64,000 nt of DNA from a virus (lineage: Duplodnaviria; Heunggongvirae; Uroviricota; Caudoviricetes), in the IMG/VR virus record IMGVR_UViG_3300021963_000025, positions 135,670-199,669 of that record, one strand, 5' to 3'. Below, piece by piece: positions 35,019-51,480 of the stretch. Under the pieces are notes generated by a model that did not search any database, was not told the origin of the DNA, and saw only the letters and a program-made list of their open reading frames with translations. Within the stretch, counting starts at the first letter, position 1; every line of letters starts with the position of its first letter. Made by a program: the position numbers and the translations under genes.

Positions 35019-36455
35019 ATGGAATTCTTAGACGCATTAAGACAAGAAGATATGGTAACTGAAAACGGAATGGCAACTAATTCGACATCGTTGAATGCTT
35101 GCGTTGACCTTTTCTTTAACATTGGAGCAATGAGAGGACAAGACAAACAACGTTTGATTGCAACCTTCTCTAAAGCATTCAATGAAGATCCGAAGCGTGC
35201 TATGAAACTCCTTTTTTGGGCTAGAGATGTTCGAGGTGGAGCTGGAGAACGTCAAGTTTTCAAGGACATTTTAGTTTATTTGGCAGAAAACCATGATTTG
35301 GTACTTAGACCAAATTTACACTTAATTCCTGAGTATGGTCGTTGGGATGACTTATTAGTCCTTGTAGGAACTTACTTAGAGAAAGAAGCAATGACCCTAA
35401 TCTCTGACGCATTAATCAACGAAAATGGTTTATGTGCAAAATGGATGCCACGTAAAGGTGCAGTAGCTGAAAAGTTACGTAAATTTACTGGAATGTCGCC
35501 AAAACAATACAGAAAATCTCTTGTAGGTTTAACAAACGTAGTTGAAACTAAGATGTGTGCTAAAGATTGGAATTCTATCGATTTCGGTAAATTACCATCT
35601 GTCGCTTCAGCAAGATACCAAAAAGCCTTTGGTAAAAATGCATACGAAAGTTATTCAGCCTATATTGCTTCTCTTGTAAAAGGTGAGGCTAAAATTAATG
35701 CAGGTGCAGTTTACCCATACGACGTGACTAAGTCTCTAAACTATGGAAACTCAAGCGTAGCAAACGAACAATGGAAAGCTCTTCCAAACTATATGGAAGG
35801 CGCAAACGATATGATTTTACCAGTGGTTGATGTCTCAGGTTCTATGTCTTGCCCAGCAGGCGGTAGTAAATCTGTAACATGTATGGATGTTGCAATCTCG
35901 TTAGGTCTTTATATTTCTGAAAGAAATGAAGGTCCTTTCAAAGATGCATTCATTACTTTCTCAAGTAAACCACAGTTGCAAGTATTAAGTGGCTCATTGA
36001 ACGATCGCTACACACAGATGTCAAACTCTGATTGGGGAATGTCAACGGATCTTGAGGCGACCTTCAAATTGATTTTAGATCAGGCCACTAAGCATAAACT
36101 ATCGCAAGATAAAATGCCAAATAAAATCCTAATCCTATCAGATATGGAATTTAATGCAGCAGTTTATTCTGGAGGTTATAGTACTAGACTTAAAGGTGGA
36201 ACGTGGAATCCAACTGCTCAGCAAATGATTGAGCAAATGTATGCTGACGCAGGTTACAAAGTACCTCAAATTGTTTACTGGAATATTCAATCCCGAAATG
36301 GAGGAGTACCGGTTGCATTTGATACTCAAGGAACTGCATTAGTTTCAGGATTCTCTCCAGCAATTATGACTAGTTTACTTGGAGGAGATATTGAATCTCC
36401 ACAACAAATCATGGACAAAACAATTTTGAGTGAGAGATACGCTCCAGTTGTTTAA
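35019..36455 (+). CDS. TROVE/Ro60-related vWA protein (DUF2828-like)
   Basis: TENG, LFWARDVRGGAGER, YGRWDDL, AKWMPR, MIDAS VDVSGSM, ILSDMEF, YWN, VSGFSP. Confidence 0.85.
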   Translation: MEFLDALRQEDMVTENGMATNSTSLNACVDLFFNIGAMRGQDKQRLIATFSKAFNEDPKRAMKLLFWARDVRGGAGERQVFKDILVYLAENHDLVLRPNLHLIPEYGRWDDLLVLVGTYLEKEAMTLISDALINENGLCAKWMPRKGAVAEKLRKFTGMSPKQYRKSLVGLTNVVETKMCAKDWNSIDFGKLPSVASARYQKAFGKNAYESYSAYIASLVKGEAKINAGAVYPYDVTKSLNYGNSSVANEQWKALPNYMEGANDMILPVVDVSGSMSCPAGGSKSVTCMDVAISLGLYISERNEGPFKDAFITFSSKPQLQVLSGSLNDRYTQMSNSDWGMSTDLEATFKLILDQATKHKLSQDKMPNKILILSDMEFNAAVYSGGYSTRLKGGTWNPTAQQMIEQMYADAGYKVPQIVYWNIQSRNGGVPVAFDTQGTALVSGFSPAIMTSLLGGDIESPQQIMDKTILSERYAPVV

Positions 36456-37252: not shown

Positions 37253-37546
37253 ATGAATATTTTAGATGAAGCAAGCGGAATAGTTAATAACCGCTCAGAA
37301 GAAGCAGACAGACAATATGGTCCTTTCTCAGAAGGCATGGACAGAGCTGCAATGATTTTTAAAGGTATGACCGGACTTGAAGTTACAGGTGAACACATGT
37401 TTAAAGCGCTAGTTGCACTTAAATTCTCTAGAGAATCTTACAATCACAAGCGTGATAACTTATTAGATGCAGTTGCATATATCCAAGGATTAGACAACTA
37501 TATTGAAGAAAACAAGAACGATATCGATGATGCATTCAATGGTTAA
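37253..37546 (+). CDS. DUF6378-like small protein (nucleotide-modification-associated)
   Basis: ILDEASGIV..R....YG...ALKFSRE..NHKRDNLLDAVAY. Confidence 0.6.
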   Translation: MNILDEASGIVNNRSEEADRQYGPFSEGMDRAAMIFKGMTGLEVTGEHMFKALVALKFSRESYNHKRDNLLDAVAYIQGLDNYIEENKNDIDDAFNG

Positions 37547-38588
37547 TATTTATGCAGTTTTAGATTCATTAAAGGGCAAGAAGATCGCAATTGATGATGT
37601 TGTAACTACGTATAGCTCAAAGAAGGCTAGCCATAAAAGTGCATGGGCCTTTCTCCTAGCTAATCAATTGAGGTCTCTCGGATTGAATGTTGAAGTACTT
37701 ACCAAGTCAGAAGATATTCACCAATATGATGTTTGGTTAGTAGCACTTCCAATGGAATTCCAAGGGTCTTATAACCTATTTGGTGGAGCCACTGACGAAC
37801 CAGCAGAGCGAATTAAAAGATTCTTAGATTTTGGTGGAACAATATATTGTTTGAATCGAGAAATGCCAGATGTTGGAGCATTCGCACGAAGTCGAATGAA
37901 ATCATGTTCACCTTTATGGGCATCTCTTGATGTTGAAGCACTTACAAAGAAGAGTAAAGAAACCCAAACAATTGAATTGAAATTGGCTTCCGGAACTTTT
38001 GTCTTAGGTGATTCCCATTCAGTTTCAGTATACCATCCCGGCACAAATATCAGCCGAAATGACGGTAAAACCTTATTTGGCGTCCTGAAAGAGGGAATGC
38101 AATTATATATTCCTGAAGGAACTGACCACCTAATCACATACTTTGGAAACATCGATGTTCGTCATCACTTATGTCGACAAGAAAAACCAATTGATGCTGT
38201 TAAAGCACTTGTAAAAAATTACTTTGAACACTTACAATCACTAGGAATTCAAAAGAATACTGTTGTAAAATTGCTGCCTATAGAATTTGAAGGTCGCAGA
38301 ATTCCTAAAACTGGGTACTACAAAGGAACTCCATTTATCGGTACTCAAAGAGAACGGACTCAATTGATGGAAATATTTAACGAAGAGGTTGACAAACTCT
38401 CGGCAATATATAATATGAACGTAATCGAATGGCCGATTCACTGGTACTCAGCAGACCCTCAATACTTTGCCGATACCTATATGGAAAAGCCAGGTTCAGT
38501 TCACCTGTCTAGAGAGTTTTACCAATATGATTTCGAGACGTCCGAAAAAAATGTTGCCCTAAAGAAGACTATCAATACTCTTTTTTGA
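37539..38588 (+). CDS. Protein with C-terminal SGNH/GDSL-like domain
   Basis: VLGDSH, GKTLFG, FGNIDVRHH, SVHL; ATG at 37539 overlaps the upstream stop. Confidence 0.5.
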   Translation: MVNIYAVLDSLKGKKIAIDDVVTTYSSKKASHKSAWAFLLANQLRSLGLNVEVLTKSEDIHQYDVWLVALPMEFQGSYNLFGGATDEPAERIKRFLDFGGTIYCLNREMPDVGAFARSRMKSCSPLWASLDVEALTKKSKETQTIELKLASGTFVLGDSHSVSVYHPGTNISRNDGKTLFGVLKEGMQLYIPEGTDHLITYFGNIDVRHHLCRQEKPIDAVKALVKNYFEHLQSLGIQKNTVVKLLPIEFEGRRIPKTGYYKGTPFIGTQRERTQLMEIFNEEVDKLSAIYNMNVIEWPIHWYSADPQYFADTYMEKPGSVHLSREFYQYDFETSEKNVALKKTINTLF

Positions 38589-38613
38589 AACTTTTTAAAT
38601 AAACCAAGTATAA
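38585..38613 (+). promoter_or_regulatory. TTGAAAC-N17-TATAA promoter-like element
   Basis: Upstream of inositol-3-phosphate synthase. Confidence 0.6.
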
Positions 38614-38639
38614 AAATTATAAATTAAATTTTAAGAAAA

Positions 38640-39827
38640 ATGAACAAAATTAAAGTAGGAATTATTGGAACTGGAAATTGTGCCAAATCATTAGTCGAAG
38701 GTGTACAGTATTACACAGAGAACCCAAATGATATTACTGGGATGATGAAATCCGACATCGGAGGTTACAAAGCAGAAAATATTGAATTTGTTTGTGGATT
38801 CGAAATTGATGAACGTAAAGTTAATCAAACGTTAGGATACGCACTTAAACAAAGACCAAACTCTGCATGGGACATTGTTGATGTTATTCACTCTGAAGCG
38901 CCAGTTTACGAGGCTCCAGTAATTGATGGTTATGCAGCCCTTATGGATAACTATCCAGAACAAAACCGTTTCTTAGTTGATGAAAAATTAAGAAACTCTA
39001 CAGACATGAATCGTACTGATTGGACACCTAAAAAATCACGCGAATGGAAAGACCAAATCATTGCTAAATTAAAAGACCATGGTGTTGAAGTATTGATTAA
39101 CTACTTACCAGTAGGTTCTCAAAAAACAACTGAATTCTGGGCTGAAATTTGTCTTGAAACAGGAATCTCTCTAGTAAACTGTATTCCAGTATTTATTGCC
39201 TCTGACCCAGCTTGGGAGCAAAGATTTATCGATGCTGGTATTCCAATCATCGGAGACGATATGCGTTCTCAATTTGGAGCAAGTATTCTTTCTCAAATGT
39301 TACAAGAACTTGCCTTTGAAAGAGGACATCATGTAAAAGCCCACATCCAAAGAAATGTTGGAGGTAACACAGACTTCTTAAATATGGAAGATAAATCTCG
39401 TCTTGCTTCTAAAAAGATTTCTAAAGAAAACGTTATCCGTGCACAAAATGAAATTCGTGGAATTTCAACTGAAGATTCATTCCTACATGCAGGTCCTTCT
39501 GAGTATATCGCATTCTATGGTGATAACAAAGTTGCTAACTTCCGTTTAGAACTTACAGGATTCGGTGGAGCACCAGTTCTTTTTGATGCTCAATTAAGTG
39601 TACAAGACTCTCCAAACTCAGCTGGAGTAGTAATCGACGCAGTTCGTTATTTAAGAGTTGCAAGAGAATTAGGAGTTGTAGGAGCCTTAAGAGGTCCTTC
39701 AGCGTTCACACAAAAAACTCCACCAGATCAAATGATGTTTGCTGATGCTGTTTATGAGTGTACTGAATTGGCTGCAAGACGCTTAACAGATTCTACAAGA
39801 AAACAGTTAGCTGCTAAAAAAGCCTAA
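38640..39827 (+). CDS. ino1: Inositol-3-phosphate (myo-inositol-1-phosphate) synthase
   Basis: IIGTGNCAKSLVEG, INYLPVGS, NCIPVFIA, IGDDMRSQFGA, NVGGNTDFLNM, SKKISK, DSPNSAGVVIDAVR. Confidence 0.93.
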   Translation: MNKIKVGIIGTGNCAKSLVEGVQYYTENPNDITGMMKSDIGGYKAENIEFVCGFEIDERKVNQTLGYALKQRPNSAWDIVDVIHSEAPVYEAPVIDGYAALMDNYPEQNRFLVDEKLRNSTDMNRTDWTPKKSREWKDQIIAKLKDHGVEVLINYLPVGSQKTTEFWAEICLETGISLVNCIPVFIASDPAWEQRFIDAGIPIIGDDMRSQFGASILSQMLQELAFERGHHVKAHIQRNVGGNTDFLNMEDKSRLASKKISKENVIRAQNEIRGISTEDSFLHAGPSEYIAFYGDNKVANFRLELTGFGGAPVLFDAQLSVQDSPNSAGVVIDAVRYLRVARELGVVGALRGPSAFTQKTPPDQMMFADAVYECTELAARRLTDSTRKQLAAKKA

Positions 39828-39842
39828 CAATTACATTAATCC

Positions 39843-39873
39843 AAAAGGGAGAGAAGCAACTCTCCCTTTTTTT
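39843..39873 (+). terminator. Rho-independent terminator
   Basis: AAAAGGGAGAG/CTCTCCCTTTT plus T-run. Confidence 0.8.
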
Positions 39874-39888
39874 ATCAAAACTTTAAGC

Positions 39889-40287
39889 ATGTTAAACATT
39901 TTTAAAACCAAAAAACCAGTCGATATCTACGGATATGATTTTGATGGGGTAATTTCAATTGGAATAACTCCAAGAGCATCTAGTGATTTTGTTATTACCG
40001 GAAGATGCATTGATGAACAAGACGAAATCAAAGCAATCCTTAAAGAGAGAGGAATTAAATGCAAAGTCTATTTTAATCCAATGACCCTTGAAGAACGTGG
40101 AAACCATACGGTTGCCGCAAGAAGAAATTCTGGGCATCATAAGGCACATACAATTAATCGTTTAAAAAATGAAGGTGTTATTGTTTCACGTTTTTTTGAA
40201 GATGACCCAATACAATACCAAATCATTCAGGAAAACTGTCCAGATGTAGAATTGGTTAACATTGTATCAAAATTAGTACAAAAATAA
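39889..40287 (+). CDS. Capless HAD-superfamily phosphatase
   Basis: YDFDGV (motif I), ITGR (II), K (III), FEDD (IV). Confidence 0.8.
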   Translation: MLNIFKTKKPVDIYGYDFDGVISIGITPRASSDFVITGRCIDEQDEIKAILKERGIKCKVYFNPMTLEERGNHTVAARRNSGHHKAHTINRLKNEGVIVSRFFEDDPIQYQIIQENCPDVELVNIVSKLVQK

Positions 40288-40288
40288 A

Positions 40289-40990
40289 ATGAGCAGAGTT
40301 AAACTTCCTGAGCTTCCAATTTCAAAATTGGAAAAGACCCGACTTAAAAAGAAATATGTTAAGATACTAGGAGCATCTGAAGGTGTTGATGATAGTATGA
40401 TTGGTGAAAGTATTGCTAATTATTTAATTCCTGAGGTTGACTATAAGGGAATGGTTTGTCTTGACCTTGGAGCCAATATTGGAGCTTTTACTCAAATTGC
40501 ACTGGATTCCGGAGCAAGTAAAGTTTGTACAGTAGAGTGTGATGCCCGAAACTTTGAAAAACTACAATCAACATACAAGAATGATGATTATGTCGATTTG
40601 GTTTATGCTGCCGTTTCTGGACTACCTGATAAGACCTTAAAAATATTCAAATCTTCAAGCCAAAATGCACATTGTTCAACATCAATTGAGAGCAAAATGA
40701 AGTTTAGTGAATATGACTATGTTGAAAATATCCATCTGAAAAAGTTACTAAAGAAGTACAGTCCAGATATTATTAAAATGGATATTGAATCTGCTGAGTA
40801 TACCCTAATCGATACCTTAATCGATTACGAACCTAAATATTTATTTATTGAATTGCATGCCGGAAAACATAGAGCTGAAATGTATGAAGTGTTAGGAAGA
40901 CTACAGTCAATTTATCCATATTCAAAAGTGGTTCCATTGGTTATATTTACCGACAATTTAATAGCACATGACTGCTTCTTTAAAAAATAA
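40289..40990 (+). CDS. FkbM-family SAM-dependent methyltransferase
   Basis: LDLGANIGAF, TVE, AAVS, IIKMDIESAEY, FIELH. Confidence 0.85.
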   Translation: MSRVKLPELPISKLEKTRLKKKYVKILGASEGVDDSMIGESIANYLIPEVDYKGMVCLDLGANIGAFTQIALDSGASKVCTVECDARNFEKLQSTYKNDDYVDLVYAAVSGLPDKTLKIFKSSSQNAHCSTSIESKMKFSEYDYVENIHLKKLLKKYSPDIIKMDIESAEYTLIDTLIDYEPKYLFIELHAGKHRAEMYEVLGRLQSIYPYSKVVPLVIFTDNLIAHDCFFKK

Positions 40991-40998
40991 AAATTAAA

Positions 40999-42189
40999 AT
41001 GACTTCAAATAAACACTTGCTTGAGATGGATTCTCAAGCACTGTTGGATTTAATACCAACAGAAAAAAGACAACTTATTCGAGATTTCGTTCATGAAATG
41101 AATCGAAGAGAGTATGAGGTTCGTTTTGCAAAAACATGCACCTTCGATACATTTAGACATCGAGAAGGCACTGGAAAAGAAGACACATTTGGACATGGAT
41201 TTATTGTAGAGGGACGTTCAGTTCCATACTTCCACCCAAATCGTTCTTTTCACGATGAGATTATTTGGTTAAATGAAAATGTGTTCTACAATCCAGACTG
41301 TACATTTGAGGACCGATTAATTAATGCCGCAATTGTAAAATTCTATGGGCCGTCAAACACAATTAGTCTATTAACGCATGACACTGGATTTCCATTCGTT
41401 AAATATGACAGATTAGTTAATGACGAGAAGTATGTTCTACAGTGTATGGTTAATATGGAGAATGCAAAAAGACGTGGAGAAAAGATTTATGGTACTACTG
41501 AATTACGAACAAGTCTTCAAACTGAATCGAGAAACCATGCAAGAGTAATTAAAACTCCTTATGATGTATTAATTGGTGCCGAACCGGATCCAACTAGACA
41601 GAGTCGAACCAGCGATATGTTCTTTTGGTTTACCCTACTAGGTCCGCGTTTTGCAGAATTTTATTCTAAGAAGCCGACAATGGAAGAGTCGTTTGATTTC
41701 CTAACATCACATCGAGGAATTGGAAACTATTATGGTTACCACTTTAGTACCAACCTTGCCCGAATGCCTGAAATCGGTACTCCCGACCTATTGCGACCTA
41801 ATGCTCCTTTTGGAAATCTTAACGAAGATGATGACTTTGTTGCACCCGGAGTTGGAGCGATGACCACAATCAACTGGTTCTATGAACACTTAGGTTTTTC
41901 AATCTCGTCTGACGTTGGAGCCAAGGTTATCAGACAAATCCGGGACACTCAACACGAGTTCTTTGATTTTACTGGAGAAAATCTTGACTATTTAAAAGTA
42001 ATCACCGAGACCGGAAGATTTACAACGTTTGGTACAGAAATTAGTTGTTGTCAGTTTGGTGTATTTTTACGATTGAGAGATAGTAAAAAGATGGCCCTAA
42101 ACCGTGCAAATGCTCCAATTTCTAAAGAACAAATCGGTGAATCATGTGAAGTAGATGAACCAACATTTAAAAGTTCATGTTTATTTTAA
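40999..42189 (+). CDS. aGPT-Pplase1 / 5-hmdU DNA kinase helical-domain-like (HhH) DNA base-modification protein
   Basis: RGIGNYYGYHFSTNL...DDFVAPGVGA...EISCCQF matches the GIG.F.AY...DL...FV..GPGA...E..LCE pattern of this family as recalled. Confidence 0.6.
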   Translation: MTSNKHLLEMDSQALLDLIPTEKRQLIRDFVHEMNRREYEVRFAKTCTFDTFRHREGTGKEDTFGHGFIVEGRSVPYFHPNRSFHDEIIWLNENVFYNPDCTFEDRLINAAIVKFYGPSNTISLLTHDTGFPFVKYDRLVNDEKYVLQCMVNMENAKRRGEKIYGTTELRTSLQTESRNHARVIKTPYDVLIGAEPDPTRQSRTSDMFFWFTLLGPRFAEFYSKKPTMEESFDFLTSHRGIGNYYGYHFSTNLARMPEIGTPDLLRPNAPFGNLNEDDDFVAPGVGAMTTINWFYEHLGFSISSDVGAKVIRQIRDTQHEFFDFTGENLDYLKVITETGRFTTFGTEISCCQFGVFLRLRDSKKMALNRANAPISKEQIGESCEVDEPTFKSSCLF

Positions 42190-42230
42190 ACAAGTTCAAA
42201 ATTACCTATAAAACTATTATATAAAAACTT

Positions 42231-42698
42231 ATGGCAAATATAGACAATCAATGTAAAGACCTGGAAGTTAAAGACTTCTATTCAGATTCGACCACTCACT
42301 TGGCGGATATAATGGAAAACCAAAAGAAAATGCAGGAGCAGACTTATGGTTTCAATTTTGAAAATATGTCAATTAGAGAAATTATGAACTTTTGGCATGT
42401 TAATACGCATGCAGTAGTTGATGAAATTCACGAGATGACTGATGCCCTTGGAGGTATTAAAGATGGTAGTGGAAATGCAGTTTGGAAATACTGGAAAAAA
42501 GACTTTTCAAAGTATGAAACTATGAAAATCAGTGACCTATCTGAAGAGGACAAAAAAGAACTTTATATGGAATGGGTAGACATACTACACTTCTTTATAA
42601 ATTATGCGTCTTCAATCGGATTAGATGCAAAAACAGCTTACAATTATTACTTCGCGAAAGCAGAAGAAAATGTTAACCGTCAAAAAAGAGGATATTAA
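42231..42698 (+). CDS. Dimeric all-alpha dUTPase/dCTPase (T4 gp56-like)
   Basis: DEIHE, WKYWKK, EWVDILHF, YFAKAEENVNRQKRGY. Confidence 0.8.
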   Translation: MANIDNQCKDLEVKDFYSDSTTHLADIMENQKKMQEQTYGFNFENMSIREIMNFWHVNTHAVVDEIHEMTDALGGIKDGSGNAVWKYWKKDFSKYETMKISDLSEEDKKELYMEWVDILHFFINYASSIGLDAKTAYNYYFAKAEENVNRQKRGY

Positions 42699-44095
42699 TG
42701 ATACTTGACATCGAACAGCGTGAAAAAGATGTAATCATTTCATATTACAATGACAAAGGAGAAGTAGCATTCAAACAATACCCAGTGGATAAATTCCAAA
42801 ATTGGTATGTTTGTGATGACAAAGACAAAGCGGCTAGCCCAGATTATAAAAACTGGGATGGCCGTCCTGTTAAACTAGGATATGGAAAACAATTCAATAA
42901 GTTCTCCATTCTTTATTTTTTAGATAATATTTCAGAGAAAGACAAAAAAGACCTGACAGCATACAATATGCCAAAAACCTATTTTGTCGATATTGAAACT
43001 GAAATTGTTGATGGCTTTCCAAAAGCCGAAGAGGCCAAAAGTAGAATTCTTTCATTCTCAATAATCACTCCAGACCGTAAAGCAATCGTCTTAGGTTTGG
43101 AAGATATGGCTCCAGATAAAATCCAAAAGATTCAAGATGATACCAATGAGTACTTTAAAGATTTTGATATGGACTGGGAATTTAAGTACCATAAGTTCAA
43201 GTCAGAGTATGATATGGTGTACACATTCTTAATGAAATTCTTACCAAAGTTTCCAATGATGACTGGATGGAATTTTATCAACTATGACTGGCAATATATT
43301 GTTAATCGATGCAAAAGACTTCAAATTGATATTAAAGAAGTTGGTATGACTAATTCAATCGATCATACTGATGGTCGACCTCTTCATATCGGAATTCTTG
43401 ACTACATGCAATTGTATGACAAATATGACCGAACTGTAAAAGTTAAAGAATCCAACTCTTTGGATTATGTTTCAAGTCAAGTTTTGAACGTTAACAAAAT
43501 CAAGTTCACTGGCTCACTACAGGACTTATACCGAGATAATTTTGTCAAGTACATATATTATAACGTTGTCGATTCAGTGCTTGTGTATTACATTGACCAG
43601 AAGTTGAAGTCGATGGAAGTACTTTTAACATTGGCAAATATTACAAATATGCCTCTATACAAAGCAAGTTCTCCAGTGGCAGTTACTGAGGCGATTATGG
43701 CCAGAAAACTTGCTGAGCAAGGAATGCGAATTGGAAGTGAAGAGAAAACTGATAGTCAAAAAGATGGCCAATATGCTGGAGCATTCGTAAAAGAACCAAT
43801 ACTTGGATTCTATGAAGGTGTAAGTGCATTTGACTTTGCGTCACTATACCCTTCTATCATGAGACAATTTAATATATCTCCAGATGCCTACATCGAAAAG
43901 ATTTATAAAAGTGAAATTGAAGAGAGACGTAAAGACAAAGAGGTTATTGTTTGTGATAATGGTGTAGTATATAAGACCGAAGATTCAATCTTAAGAAAGA
44001 TATTAAGTGACCTTTATGCGCAACGTAAAGATTATAAAAAAACTTCTTATGAATATTTCACAAAAGCTGACCGGTTGAAAAAACTGCTCCAATAA
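42698..44095 (+). CDS. gp43A: Split family-B DNA polymerase, N-terminal subunit (3'-5' exonuclease + motif A)
   Basis: DIETE, GWNFINYD, YNVVD, YAGAFV, DFASLYPSIM; ends after LYAQRKDYKK. Confidence 0.9.
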   Translation: MILDIEQREKDVIISYYNDKGEVAFKQYPVDKFQNWYVCDDKDKAASPDYKNWDGRPVKLGYGKQFNKFSILYFLDNISEKDKKDLTAYNMPKTYFVDIETEIVDGFPKAEEAKSRILSFSIITPDRKAIVLGLEDMAPDKIQKIQDDTNEYFKDFDMDWEFKYHKFKSEYDMVYTFLMKFLPKFPMMTGWNFINYDWQYIVNRCKRLQIDIKEVGMTNSIDHTDGRPLHIGILDYMQLYDKYDRTVKVKESNSLDYVSSQVLNVNKIKFTGSLQDLYRDNFVKYIYYNVVDSVLVYYIDQKLKSMEVLLTLANITNMPLYKASSPVAVTEAIMARKLAEQGMRIGSEEKTDSQKDGQYAGAFVKEPILGFYEGVSAFDFASLYPSIMRQFNISPDAYIEKIYKSEIEERRKDKEVIVCDNGVVYKTEDSILRKILSDLYAQRKDYKKTSYEYFTKADRLKKLLQ

Positions 44096-46888: not shown

Positions 46889-47971
46889 ATGGTTCCAATT
46901 AAGCTTTTTGAAGAATTCTTGTACGAAGAAAATCTTAAAAACAAATATGCTAAAAAAGTAGCATGGGTTATGAAAACTCATGATATTCATGCAACTTCAG
47001 GTGATGTGAATGGCCGCGAAAAGAAATACAATATTGCCGCAAAAGGTAATTTATTTCTAAATTATGCAACCAAAGAAGATTTTGAAAACGATAAAATCGT
47101 TGTTCCTGATAATGTTCCAATCCTTTATTACGGTGGAGCAGTAGACCCAGAAGCTATTGGATTCTTAAAGAATAAAGGTATCAACAATGATAATCTTTAC
47201 AACAAAAGAGAATTACTTCCAATCTCTGGAGACAAAGTAAAATTTGCAAAAGCAGCCGCAAAATTTGATTGGCTTCCAAAAACAGTTTTCACAAAAGAGG
47301 AGGCAGTCAATGGAGATGTTGGTTTCCCAGTTATTGCAAAAATAAAAGATGGCCATAGCGGACTTGGTATTCAAAAGTTTGACACTGCAAAAGAACTTGA
47401 AGATAGCAAAGACGAATTCGATATCTTTTGTCAATTTATAGATTTTGCAAGAGAATATAGAGTAATGTTTTGTAGAGACAAGATTTTTGTTATTAATGAA
47501 AGAGTACCGAGAATTGAAGATGACCGTTCGATTAAAACAAAAACTGCCGATGAAAAAATAAGTTTCACTTATGTTTATCAAGACAGAAAGAAAGTCGACC
47601 CTGAATTTATTGAAAATGTGCTATCAATTTGCAAAGACGTTAAAACATTCTTAGACCTAGACTTATGGGCCTTAGATATTGTCGTAGATAAAAAAGGTAA
47701 AATGTGGATTATGGAAACATCATCTGCAACTGGACTTGGAAGCGTTAAAATGTGCGAAGTTTATAAGGCAATGTACGAAGATTTTTATGGAGAAGCGCTA
47801 GATGATGAATTCTTAGAGGATATTTACCTAAAATATGTAGTTCCTGGACATCAAAATTACTATCCAAAATTTAAAAAAGAAATTGAGTCTTCTCAGTGGC
47901 CAATGGACTATAAAATATTGACAGATCCAAAGGCAAAAGATGGATATCGATATTTTTTTAATTTAGATTAA
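46889..47971 (+). CDS. RimK-like ATP-grasp ligase with CTS-like N-terminus
   Basis: DK, LPKT, FPVIAKIKDGHSGLGI, QFID..REYRV, ALDIV, IMETSS; starts MVPIKLFEEFLYE; GATATATA at 46862. Confidence 0.8.
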   Translation: MVPIKLFEEFLYEENLKNKYAKKVAWVMKTHDIHATSGDVNGREKKYNIAAKGNLFLNYATKEDFENDKIVVPDNVPILYYGGAVDPEAIGFLKNKGINNDNLYNKRELLPISGDKVKFAKAAAKFDWLPKTVFTKEEAVNGDVGFPVIAKIKDGHSGLGIQKFDTAKELEDSKDEFDIFCQFIDFAREYRVMFCRDKIFVINERVPRIEDDRSIKTKTADEKISFTYVYQDRKKVDPEFIENVLSICKDVKTFLDLDLWALDIVVDKKGKMWIMETSSATGLGSVKMCEVYKAMYEDFYGEALDDEFLEDIYLKYVVPGHQNYYPKFKKEIESSQWPMDYKILTDPKAKDGYRYFFNLD

Positions 47972-47975
47972 TCAC

Positions 47976-49037
47976 ATGAAAACAGGAGTATTTAAAACAT
48001 CATTAAAGGAAAACGAAAAACGTATTCCAATTCACCCTTCGCATATTGAAAGATTATCTAGAGACATTATCAAAGAACTCTTATTTGAAGAGGGATATGG
48101 TGAAGATTACGGATATTCAGACCATCAACTTCAACAAATGGGTTGTGAGTTTGCCAGTCGTGAGGATCTTTTTAAAGAGTGCAGTATAATTATACTACCA
48201 AAACCCGTTGCCGAAGACCTAAAACAAATGCAAGATGGAGCAACCCTATGCGGTTGGACCCATGCAGTTCAACAGCGAGACATTACTGATATTGCAATTG
48301 AAAAGGGTTTAACACTTCTTGCATGGGAAGAGATGAACCATGTTTCTAAAAACCAAAAGTTACATACATTTTATCGAAACAATGAATTAGCCGGCTATGC
48401 TGGAGTTATTCATTACTTACAATTAGCAGGTCTTGATGGACACTATGGCGAACGCAAGAAAGTTGTTATTTTTGGATTTGGTTCTGTTAGTAAAGGAGCA
48501 ATATATGCCTTACAAGGTAGAGGTTTTAACAACATTACAGTTTATACACAAAGACCTACTCACCTAGTTGCCGATAAAAATCCTGATGTTTGGTATAAGA
48601 ACTTTAATGATGATGATATTTGGGAAGACATGTATTCTGCTCATATTATATTTAATGGAGTCCTGCAGGATGTAAATAATCCTCTAATGTTTATTAAAGA
48701 TTTGAATCAATTAGACCAATTACGTAGAAATTGTGCAATCATCGATATTAGTTGTGACAAGGGAATGGGATTCTTTTTTGCTGAACCTACAACATTTGAA
48801 AATCCAATTATCAAAATGAGAAGAGGTATTCAATACTACTCTGTCGATCATACTCCAACATACTTATGGAATGCTGCTTCTAGAGAAATTTCTGCCGCGT
48901 TGGTTCCATACTTAAGTACTATAATAGAACCCCAAAAATGGGAAGATAATCCGGTTATTAGTGGTTGTATAGATATTAAATCTGGAGTTATTATCAATCA
49001 AAACATAAACAGATTTCAAAAAAGGATATATAAATAA
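47976..49037 (+). CDS. N5-(carboxyethyl)ornithine synthase-like (AlaDH/PNT family) oxidoreductase
   Basis: KENEKRIP, EEGYG, RNNELAGYAGV, GFGSVSKGA, DISCD, VDHTP. Confidence 0.8.
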   Translation: MKTGVFKTSLKENEKRIPIHPSHIERLSRDIIKELLFEEGYGEDYGYSDHQLQQMGCEFASREDLFKECSIIILPKPVAEDLKQMQDGATLCGWTHAVQQRDITDIAIEKGLTLLAWEEMNHVSKNQKLHTFYRNNELAGYAGVIHYLQLAGLDGHYGERKKVVIFGFGSVSKGAIYALQGRGFNNITVYTQRPTHLVADKNPDVWYKNFNDDDIWEDMYSAHIIFNGVLQDVNNPLMFIKDLNQLDQLRRNCAIIDISCDKGMGFFFAEPTTFENPIIKMRRGIQYYSVDHTPTYLWNAASREISAALVPYLSTIIEPQKWEDNPVISGCIDIKSGVIINQNINRFQKRIYK

Positions 49038-50283: not shown

Positions 50284-51480
50284 ATGACAATCGACGAATT
50301 AATACTAAAACCAGAGAGTGAGTTATCACAGGATGAAATTAAAATCTTGGTTGAGCATTATTCTATGTTGTCAGCAAAGTTCGGTGCCTATGAGCAAGCA
50401 GTAAAAGTAATGCTTAACTCTATTTATGGTGCATTTGGAAACAAATGGTTTCACTTTTTTAATATAGACATCGCAGAATCGATCACACTACAAGGTCAAT
50501 CTGCGATTCTATATTCTGAAAAGATTCTAAACAAATATTTTCAAGAGTTTTGGACCAAAGATAGGGCAGTTCATGAATTTTTTAACATTCAAGTTAAGAG
50601 TAAATTGGTCCGACCATCGGTAGTTTATATCGATACCGATTCTTGTTACGTGCAATTTGAAGAGATGTATGAATCTATTGAATGGCTTGGAGACAAGTTA
50701 ACTATTGACCAATTCATTATGAAATTGTACAACTTCAGACTTAAAGATTATATCTTTAAATGTATGGAGAAATATGCGGAAGCCACCAATACTGAAAACT
50801 TCCTTGTGTTTGAATTAGAGACTATTGCATACTCTGGAATTTGGTTAGCTAAGAAAAAATACTTGCAGAATATTGCTTGGGAAGATAAGATTGGAATCGA
50901 AGAACGTTATCCTTCGCTTAAGAAGGTAAAAACTATCGGTTTTGATACTATTCAAAGTTCAACTCCAGCCCTTGCAAGAAAGCAATTAACTGAGATTCTT
51001 AAACTGATTCTTTCAGAAAAACCTACTGCTTCTCTATTGAAAAGACTTGTAGATTATTTGAAACAATGTAAAAAAGAATTTCAATTAGCAAGCGTTGATG
51101 AAATTTGTTTCAATAAAAGAACTAACAATCTTGAAAAATATATTGTAGATGATACTATAGAATTTCAATATGGTTTAAAATGTCCACCAAACGTAAAAGC
51201 TGCTGGGTTTTATAACTTCTTAATGAATCAAAATCCAAAGTTCAAGAACAAGTATAAGATGATTGGTAATGGAGAAAAGTTAAAGTTGTACCATTGTAAG
51301 CACGGAACTTGTGAGATATTTGCATACCAACCAGGCGCTCATCCTTATGAAATTGCTCCGCAAGTTGACTATGAAATGCAATTTGAAAAGAGTGTTATAG
51401 ACCCATTGAACCGAGTATTAACCGCAGTTGGTTTACACACATTAAATAGAAACTTAATTTATTCAACTTCATTATTTTAA
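50284..51480 (+). CDS. gp43B: Split family-B DNA polymerase, C-terminal subunit
   Basis: Motif B QAVKVMLNSIYGAFG, SITLQGQ, motif C YIDTDS, KKKY, SSTP; C-terminal clamp-binding-like SLF. Confidence 0.9.
   Translation: MTIDELILKPESELSQDEIKILVEHYSMLSAKFGAYEQAVKVMLNSIYGAFGNKWFHFFNIDIAESITLQGQSAILYSEKILNKYFQEFWTKDRAVHEFFNIQVKSKLVRPSVVYIDTDSCYVQFEEMYESIEWLGDKLTIDQFIMKLYNFRLKDYIFKCMEKYAEATNTENFLVFELETIAYSGIWLAKKKYLQNIAWEDKIGIEERYPSLKKVKTIGFDTIQSSTPALARKQLTEILKLILSEKPTASLLKRLVDYLKQCKKEFQLASVDEICFNKRTNNLEKYIVDDTIEFQYGLKCPPNVKAAGFYNFLMNQNPKFKNKYKMIGNGEKLKLYHCKHGTCEIFAYQPGAHPYEIAPQVDYEMQFEKSVIDPLNRVLTAVGLHTLNRNLIYSTSLF

Follow-up and report, generated by a model that had tools for sequence, protein, structure and literature searches.

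A putative phage pathway for attaching a self-made cyclitol to 5-hydroxymethylcytosine in DNA

Why does a phage carry a gene for inositol synthesis in the same run of genes as its DNA polymerase? The question is raised by a 64,000-nucleotide stretch of caudovirus DNA (the window), which makes up the final 64 kb of an IMG/VR record of 199.7 kb (IMGVR_UViG_3300021963_000025; G000:C1:135670-199669; ~33% G+C; CheckV completeness 74%). At window positions 37253-44095, eight genes follow one another on the plus strand, overlapping or separated by no more than 61 nt, and among them are ino1, a small putative phosphatase gene, a gene for a helix-hairpin-helix (HhH) protein, and the first part of the polymerase. 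An original prediction, made from the sequence alone, had read the cluster as a pathway for inositol-linked DNA hypermodification. Domain, motif, and fold searches located every gene that it had named, in place and on the plus strand, and the reading was supported; all in silico checks that could have refuted it came out in its favor. It was also refined. The acceptor, judged by homology, is most likely 5-hydroxymethylcytosine (5hmC) rather than a thymine derivative, and the FkbM methyltransferase is accessory. We propose, with moderate confidence, that this uncultured T4-like phage makes a cyclitol itself and puts it on 5hmC in its DNA.

The gene at 38640-39827 (+) encodes a relative of Ino1, myo-inositol-3-phosphate synthase (MIPS; PF01658, 1.5e-22, 80.2 bits against a cut-off of 27). 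Its matches among solved structures are led by M. tuberculosis Ino1 (1gr0, 4e-77, 263 bits), with Ari2 second (6k96, 1.3e-40, 143 bits). The catalytic residues of A. fulgidus MIPS, which we take to be N255, D261, K274, K278, K306, D332, and K367, match the residue types on the 1u1i chain; in alignment all are conserved in the window Ino1, and they are invariant columns across 10 viral Ino1 sequences. The active site is intact, and overall similarity to the synthases that convert glucose-6-phosphate to inositol-3-phosphate suggests the same substrate for what is, by sequence, a divergent, phage-specific branch. The next gene, at 39889-40287 (+), encodes a 132-aa protein in which D17-x-D19-G-V, T37-G-R, K85, and E104-D-D are invariant across nine phage lineages. 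In the alignment, the order and spacing of these residues are those of haloacid dehalogenase (HAD) motifs I-IV, and the protein is a putative minimal, capless HAD-type phosphatase. It matched no hidden Markov model (HMM) in Pfam or NCBIfam, and its profile gave nothing significant against PDB. One homologue matched PF00702 weakly (0.049), and the ESM look-alikes were small viral proteins with Acid_phosphat_B/HAD_PNKP (0.87-0.89), which are a lead only. The mini-HAD would dephosphorylate inositol-3-phosphate. Because the active site and the phosphatase motif set are complete, the two enzymes together should yield free myo-inositol. The 61-nt spacer between their genes holds a G+C-rich hairpin followed by a T-run (39847-39864, +), which is terminator-like on both strands or could be an element of transcript processing or stability; it may set the expression of ino1 relative to that of the HAD gene.

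The identity of the donor invites an alternative in which the DNA modification is real but the Ino1-like enzyme makes another carbocycle or uses another sugar phosphate, or in which the cyclitol phosphate itself is attached. Ari2 converts fructose-6-phosphate to a five-membered cyclitol phosphate. This second-best solved relative has all the catalytic residues that were checked, which consequently do not fix the substrate of the window Ino1, and the window protein scored 287 bits against the equivalog model TIGR03450, where the cut-off of 638 was not reached. It is nevertheless far nearer to M. tuberculosis Ino1 than to Ari2 by the bit scores given above. A donor-borne phosphate is conceivable since no kinase was found, but a HAD protein with complete motifs beside ino1 in 77 of 80 viral loci (the census described below) fits removal of the phosphate. 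We consider either version of this alternative unlikely.

What would use free inositol? The candidate is the HhH protein encoded at 40999-42189 (+), which had been predicted to belong to the aGPT-Pplase1/HMUDK_hel superfamily. It does: PF18723 matches residues 90-358 (1.1e-7, 31.9 bits against a cut-off of 25) and is carried by most homologues. The AlphaFold2 (AF2) model of the protein (mean predicted local distance difference test score, pLDDT, 90.9) matched the SP10 5-hmdU DNA kinase (6.5e-5) in BFVD, along with Pplase1 entries and the HMUDK_hel proteins of phiRSL1, Lucky3, and PhiW-14, with probability 1.0. The best solved structure was PaMx11 gp46 (8z2m; VIA Z 9.3, root-mean-square deviation [rmsd] 5.0 over 237 residues, model 22-382 on chain 5-291), a Z score of this size being only moderately specific for helical proteins. 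Queuine-salvage DUF2419 proteins and HhH DNA glycosylases came next, with EndoIII, AlkA, OGG, and MutY at VIA Z 5-7.7. Foldseek of the model against PDB returned no match at E ≤ 0.001, and the profiles of the HhH family and of its SGNH-fold partner (below) returned nothing useful from PDB sequences. The protein had no match at E ≤ 0.01 to PF18724 (ADDT/aGPT-Pplase2), and hhalign of its profile with the single sequences of Caulobacter phage Cr30 ADDT and Stenotrophomonas phage Mendera gp042 was not significant.

The chemistry of the characterized relatives suggests what such a protein could do. In ADDT, an essential Cys attacks C6 of 5-phosphomethyl-dU with help from a neighboring Glu, the phosphate leaves and an exocyclic methylene forms, and the enzyme then adds a free nucleophile, which in ViI is the hydroxyl of serine (PMC8989533). 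PaMx11 gp46 is a 5-phosphomethyl-dU glycinyltransferase with Glu243/Cys247 as its active-site pair (PMC11472151). In the HhH family of the window, Glu347-x3-Cys351-Gln352 is invariant in sets of 40 and of 22 homologues. This conserved Glu-x3-Cys makes it probable that the transferase is the HhH protein itself. By analogy, we propose it as a base-flipping cyclitol:DNA transferase whose target is 5hmC and whose nucleophile is free (methyl-)inositol.

The inositol genes travel with this enzyme. In all 80 IMG/VR relatives, whose Ino1 is 82-99% identical, the genes run DUF6378, SGNH, ino1, HAD, (methyltransferase), HhH, and ino1, a small HAD gene, and the HhH gene stand in a row in 5 of 5 sampled distant lineages (HhH 42-57% identity), one of them with a Pol III-alpha replicase. 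The synteny that had been predicted thus extends from close relatives to distant ones. Also present in the distant loci are a gp42-like gene, a gene for dUTPase or dCMP deaminase, and in many cases one for a C5 DNA methylase. The module is common, 531 IMG/VR contigs having an Ino1 relative, and the 80 viral ino1 loci most like the Ino1 of phage RP13 were taken from these as a census. The HAD gene adjoins ino1 in 77 of the 80. Beside ino1 stood the HhH family in 52 loci, the SGNH gene in 48, a gp42-like thymidylate synthase (TS) paralogue in 45, ADDT in 14, and 7-deazaguanine genes in five; the remaining contigs were short or ended at ino1. SGNH was never found with ADDT in the census. Cultured phages carry the pair as well: it adjoins ADDT in Cr30, lies between HMUDK_hel and HMUD2 in RP13, and is inside a FolE/QueC/QueE cluster in the Mendera group.

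The HhH, ADDT, and 7-deazaguanine types interleave on an Ino1 tree (57 proteins, quick maximum-likelihood search, midpoint root, some long branches), where the well-supported branches require a minimum of four switches for ADDT and of four for deazaguanine. Such interleaving implies that the link between ino1-HAD and DNA-base-modifying enzymes arose repeatedly and is not one inherited arrangement. This bears on the alternative that ino1-HAD has nothing to do with DNA and is a cassette for auxiliary metabolism (a source of osmolyte, lipid head-group, or signal, for example) in a plastic early-gene region. Many metabolic genes of T4-like phages do sit in such regions, and in Cr30, Mendera, and Ps15 ino1 is annotated as a free-standing metabolic gene; one paper likewise lists it merely as a gene (PMC9025141). 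However, a DNA-base-modifying enzyme adjoins in 71 of 81 census loci, the rest being incomplete contigs. The two genes flanking the cassette are fused in other phages, the accompanying methyltransferase is itself fused to an HhH domain in one contig (both fusions are described below), and the association has been re-created several times on the tree. We therefore find the purely metabolic explanation highly improbable.

Several features of these loci deserve mention in their own right. A C5 cytosine DNA methylase (PF00145) often accompanies the HhH-type module, as in four loci (L088, L090, L097, and L099) and in 33 of the 80 census loci, despite the gp42-like enzyme; none was found in the window's genome (74% complete). 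Two related T4-like contigs have a nucleoside 2-deoxyribosyltransferase-like protein (PF15891, 1.1e-34) between ino1 and HAD (L090:6895-7368 and L097:8167-8637). Mendera gp042 (L001:9485-10696), a 403-aa protein that has no Pfam match and lies between QueC-like and QueE-like genes, is a candidate inositol-to-7-deazaguanine linker; three IMG/VR loci have it together with FolE/QueC and ino1-HAD. In Cr30, gp125 (L002:3901-4428) is a dATP/dGTP diphosphohydrolase (PF18909, 5e-34) encoded a few genes 5' of ADDT, a glycosyltransferase-like gene, ino1, and HAD, which hints at purine replacement in the same phage.

The HhH gene has a second constant companion. The frame at 37539-38588 (+) encodes a two-domain SGNH-fold protein of 349-361 aa; it is open from 37503, and with ATGs at 37527, 37530, and 37539, the last of which overlaps the stop of the 5' gene, its start is uncertain. 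Pfam did not match it. Its AF2 model (pLDDT 90) has an N-terminal α/β domain (~1-148) and a C-terminal SGNH-hydrolase domain, and the SGNH-like fold that had been suspected was borne out: Foldseek matched TesA, GDSL esterases, and sugar O-acetylesterases with probability 1.0, and VIA gave Z 12.3 (rmsd 2.8 over 148 residues) to 4rsh and Z ~10 to the O-acetyltransferases PatB and OatA. GDSH at 157-160, GN-x-D at 203-206, and His322 are invariant in 36 homologues. Block V reads S-V-H, not the usual D-x-x-H, the blocks having been assigned by sequence position rather than by superposition.

In Aeromonas phages 31 and 44RR2.8t, SGNH and HhH are fused in one polypeptide, the 795-aa ORF233c (PHROG 17781), whose N-terminal half is 39% identical to the window SGNH protein and whose C-terminal half is 41% identical to the window HhH protein. 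These phages have a gp42-like Asp-type paralogue, as does the window genome, but, unlike the window, they lack the ino1, HAD, and FkbM genes. In the window, SGNH and HhH are separate genes, with the ino1-HAD-methyltransferase cassette exactly between the counterparts of the two halves of the Aeromonas fusion. A literature search on the DNA chemistry of phage 44RR2.8t found nothing. The SGNH protein is a fixed, sometimes fused partner of HhH and probably takes the place of the P-loop kinase in SP10-type HMUDK fusions.

The third member of the cassette is less constant. The gene at 40289-40990 (+) encodes an FkbM-family S-adenosylmethionine-dependent methyltransferase (PF05050, 2.9e-12, 47.5 bits against 22.7; TIGR01444, 5.4e-16, 59.3 bits against 37.7). 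Of the 63 close relatives that span its position, 19 lack it; it is found with ino1-HAD in both HhH-type and ADDT-type clusters. A metagenome contig of 10 kb carries, immediately 3' of dUTPase/DCD, ino1, and HAD, a 718-aa open frame (L186:7685-9847) made up of an FkbM methyltransferase domain, a lysine-rich linker, and an HhH domain, a fusion that ties the methyltransferase physically to the DNA enzyme. The possibility that this protein, called at 720 aa with a TGA=W flag, is a gene-calling artifact was rejected, as 718 residues are open under table 11 and the TGA touches the last two only.

A different role for the cassette is conceivable. Ino1-HAD, with or without the methyltransferase, might contribute indirectly, inositol being a transient carrier, cofactor, leaving group, or regulator while HhH/SGNH installs some other group. 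The Aeromonas fusion, which manages without ino1, is in keeping with this idea, and the association of ino1 with three chemically different acceptor systems, including 7-deazaguanine, is easier to understand for a general helper metabolite. Yet ADDT-type enzymes accept small free nucleophiles directly, hydroxyls included (PMC8989533). A two-step synthesis together with a tailoring methyltransferase fused to HhH resembles donor supply, and there is no evident enzyme for regenerating or releasing a carrier. An indirect role is, in our estimate, distinctly unlikely.

Which base would receive the cyclitol? The original prediction had reported no thymidylate-synthase homologue in the window; this is correct, and both TS-family genes lie elsewhere in the record. 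The first encodes an ordinary ThyA, whereas the product of the second (284 aa, G000 97544-98398, equivalent to L007:1486-2340) is closest to T4 dCMP hydroxymethylase (1b49, 5.3e-15) and MilA; it keeps the equivalent of the catalytic Cys148, and its residue aligned with T4 Asp179 is likewise Asp, in contrast to the Asn of true TS enzymes. All examined genomes in which SGNH, HhH, or both occur (Aeromonas phages 31 and 25, L088, and L090) also have an Asp-type paralogue. Of the hydroxymethylase and kinase for which a genome-wide search had been proposed, a candidate for the first was thus located, the gp42-like enzyme, whereas no activating kinase was found. The listed HhH-type loci of distant lineages also contain no kinase.

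Within the cluster, the gene at 42231-42698 (+) encodes an all-α NTP pyrophosphohydrolase (PHROG 173, 1.9e-13), a homologue of T-even gp56 dCTPase/dUTPase that is 34% identical to the gp56 dCTPase of phage JSE (tblastn, 7e-17). It matches 1441 phage records, many annotated as dCTPase; against PDB, nothing useful was returned. Its stop overlaps the start of gp43A in the TAATG at 42696-42700, as had been noted in the original prediction of translational coupling. A gp42-like paralogue and a gp56 homologue directly before the polymerase imply the T4 logic for replacing dC by 5-hydroxymethyl-dC, and these homologies make 5hmC the probable acceptor. A thymine acceptor of the kind known from ADDT systems was rejected for this genome on the grounds that the sole divergent TS paralogue is of the cytosine type and the pyrophosphatase is gp56-like.

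A 5hmC acceptor brings with it the alternative of ordinary glycosylation, with the HhH, SGNH, and inositol genes acting on RNA, the nucleotide pool, or another base. A protein with a GT2 domain (PF00535, 6.5e-16) is encoded 2.3 kb from the gp42-like gene, as a 612-aa open reading frame (ORF; L185:553-2391, G000 ~100.7-102.5 kb), and could decorate 5hmC instead. Its domain, though, lies in the middle of the protein, and its sole PHROG match is a weak one of the GtrB-like O-antigen-conversion type. Neither PF09198 nor PF11440 (T4-type α- and β-glucosyltransferases) matched the 74%-complete record, a weak negative in that the controls were also silent, and a search of the record with PF00534 (GT-B) gave no match. 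The characterized HhH relatives, moreover, all act on 5-substituted pyrimidines in DNA (PMC8989533, PMC11472151). Decoration by a glycosyltransferase seems to us very unlikely.

Cyclitol attachment to 5hmC could then proceed as follows. The gp56-like dCTPase would remove dCTP, and the gp42-like hydroxymethylase would let 5-hydroxymethyl-dC replace dC during replication, by homology with T4. Ino1 followed by the mini-HAD would supply free myo-inositol, which the FkbM enzyme, where present, would O-methylate. The SGNH protein might activate 5hmC, for example by an O-acylation that makes a leaving group. By analogy with ADDT, the HhH protein would flip 5hmC out of the helix, Cys351 would add to C6 with the assistance of Glu347, and loss of the 5-CH2-O substituent would give an exocyclic methylene. 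Addition of an inositol hydroxyl would then form an ether-linked 5-(inosityl-oxymethyl)cytosine. Its nucleoside would be C16H25N3O10, with a calculated monoisotopic mass of 419.154, and the methylated form would be 14 Da heavier.

Besides the shared residues of Ari2, the TIGR03450 score, and the GT2 gene, a number of points weigh against this scheme. Glu347 and Cys351 fall on the invariant Glu276/Cys280 (Cr30 numbering) of ino1-linked ADDTs, but weakly (profile-profile E 0.0048, probability 7%). RP13 ORF120, a canonical HMUDK_hel protein that aligns across residues 83-377, has Glu-x3-Cys too, and the motif may accordingly serve base recognition and not catalysis. The HhH family occurs without ino1 in the Aeromonas phages, which means that inositol is not intrinsic to it, and no cultured phage has both the HhH type and ino1. 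The role of the SGNH protein, for which O-acylation of 5hmC to create a leaving group is a guess, is the least certain step; its N-terminal domain (residues 1-148) had no usable Atlas match, and the VIA alignments cover mainly 147-338. No activating enzyme came to light; with phmmer, neither RP13 HMUD2 nor Cr30 ADDT had a homologue in the 74%-complete genome. The Asp-type TS paralogue could be a dCMP methylase, as sequence cannot separate methylase from hydroxymethylase. Finally, the HAD identity of the 132-aa protein is taken from its motifs.

A broader claim can be framed around the same chemistry. Here, (O-methyl) myo-inositol would be ether-bonded to 5hmC by a Cys-dependent HhH enzyme, with an acyl-type activation by SGNH and with neither nucleotide-sugar nor kinase. 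The ino1-HAD pair would be portable to 5-hydroxymethyluracil (5hmU; ADDT) and 7-deazaguanine systems, giving a family of inositol-bearing bases across hundreds of uncultured and several cultured phages. We advance this tentatively, at somewhat less than an even chance.

The rest of the region provides context. The first gene of the cluster (37253-37546, +) encodes a 97-aa DUF6378 protein (PF19905, 9.5e-9, exceeding the cut-off) that had no useful match in PDB. Throughout this clade it is encoded directly 5' of the SGNH gene, and a copy occurs in L088, the locus of the Pol III-alpha phage. The last, gp43A (42698-44095, +; PF03104, PF00136), is the N-terminal part of a split family-B DNA polymerase, comprising the exonuclease and the start of the polymerase, and is genomic context outside the modification chemistry. 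The second polymerase part is at ~50395-51141, some 6 kb away, with nrdB, nrdA, and further genes between. Just 3' of the ribonucleotide reductase genes, an ATP-grasp protein (46889-47971) with weak R2K-clade and D-Ala-D-Ala-ligase-like matches immediately precedes an alanine dehydrogenase/PNT-like NAD enzyme (47976-49037), a metabolic pair for which we have no explanation. A 478-aa protein with DUF2828 and DUF7788 domains (35019-36455) is kept 5' of the cluster in many close relatives. Minus-strand ORFs of the cluster region are at most 127 aa and nested within the plus-strand genes. No Rfam families or tRNAs were found within the window, and megablast of the cluster region against 50,697 phage records gave no match.

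Known DNA hypermodifications are sugars, amino acids, or polyamines. If the proposal is true, a cyclitol would add a new class to the chemistry of natural DNA bases. An adduct that is isobaric with a glucosylated base and is not a glycoside could have been misread in mass data. It should also escape enzymes that recognize or remove glucosyl groups, which bears on resistance to type IV restriction, on 5hmC sequencing, and on enzymatic tools. The prediction is directly testable, as two of the three system types have cultured carriers (Cr30, RP13, and the Mendera/IME-SM1 group). Two enzymes are on offer, a candidate HhH transferase for 5hmC DNA and an SGNH-fold candidate in nucleic-acid modification, a role for which we know of no precedent in that fold. 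The original prediction knew of no inositol-modified DNA base. Literature searches on inositol or cyclitol and phage DNA modification agreed with this: no paper on inositol- or cyclitol-modified DNA was found, and the mentions that did turn up were unrelated (glycosyltransferase structural neighbors called inositol-phosphate glycosyltransferases).

How does the proposed pathway compare with known ones? For donor synthesis, the cellular route to myo-inositol (MIPS/Ino1 plus inositol monophosphatase) has the same Ino1 fold, the same catalytic residues, and the same logic of synthase followed by phosphatase, and actinobacterial Ino1 is ~55% identical to the window Ino1 across the catalytic half. 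The cellular pathway employs a phosphatase of the inositol monophosphatase fold, whereas the phage pair employs a capless HAD protein of 120-140 aa and, unlike its cellular counterpart, is phage-borne and embedded in DNA-modification operons.

The T4 5hmC pathway (gp42, gp56, and the α- and β-glucosyltransferases) shares with the window an Asp-type TS paralogue and a gp56 homologue directly 5' of the polymerase. As in T4, a C6H12O6 unit is predicted to decorate 5hmC after replication, and the predicted adduct would be isobaric with glucosyl-5hmC. The two differ in that no α/β-glucosyltransferase or GT-B enzyme was found in the record and no nucleotide-sugar donor is implied here. The predicted bond is an ether to a carbocycle rather than a glycosidic one, and it should resist glycosidases and possibly nucleases specific for glucosyl-hmC.

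The closest parallel in logic is thymidine hypermodification in ViI, M6, PaMx11, PhiW-14, and SP10 (PMC5889632, PMC8989533, PMC11472151). There, as is predicted for the window, a TS paralogue makes the hydroxymethyl-pyrimidine as a nucleotide, an HhH glycosylase-like enzyme with Glu-x3-Cys works on the base in DNA, a free metabolite is the nucleophile, and tailoring enzymes are encoded in the operon. The acceptor in those phages is 5hmU, whereas that of the window is probably 5hmC. They have a P-loop 5-HMUDK kinase; the window has neither this kinase nor a match to HMUD2 or PF18724 and has the SGNH partner instead. Their donor is an amino acid or polyamine, whereas the window phage encodes a donor pathway of its own, and the predicted donor is a cyclitol. 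Set against the established logic of hydroxymethyl-pyrimidine hypermodification, what would be new here is the class of the donor, the partner enzyme, and the cytosine acceptor.

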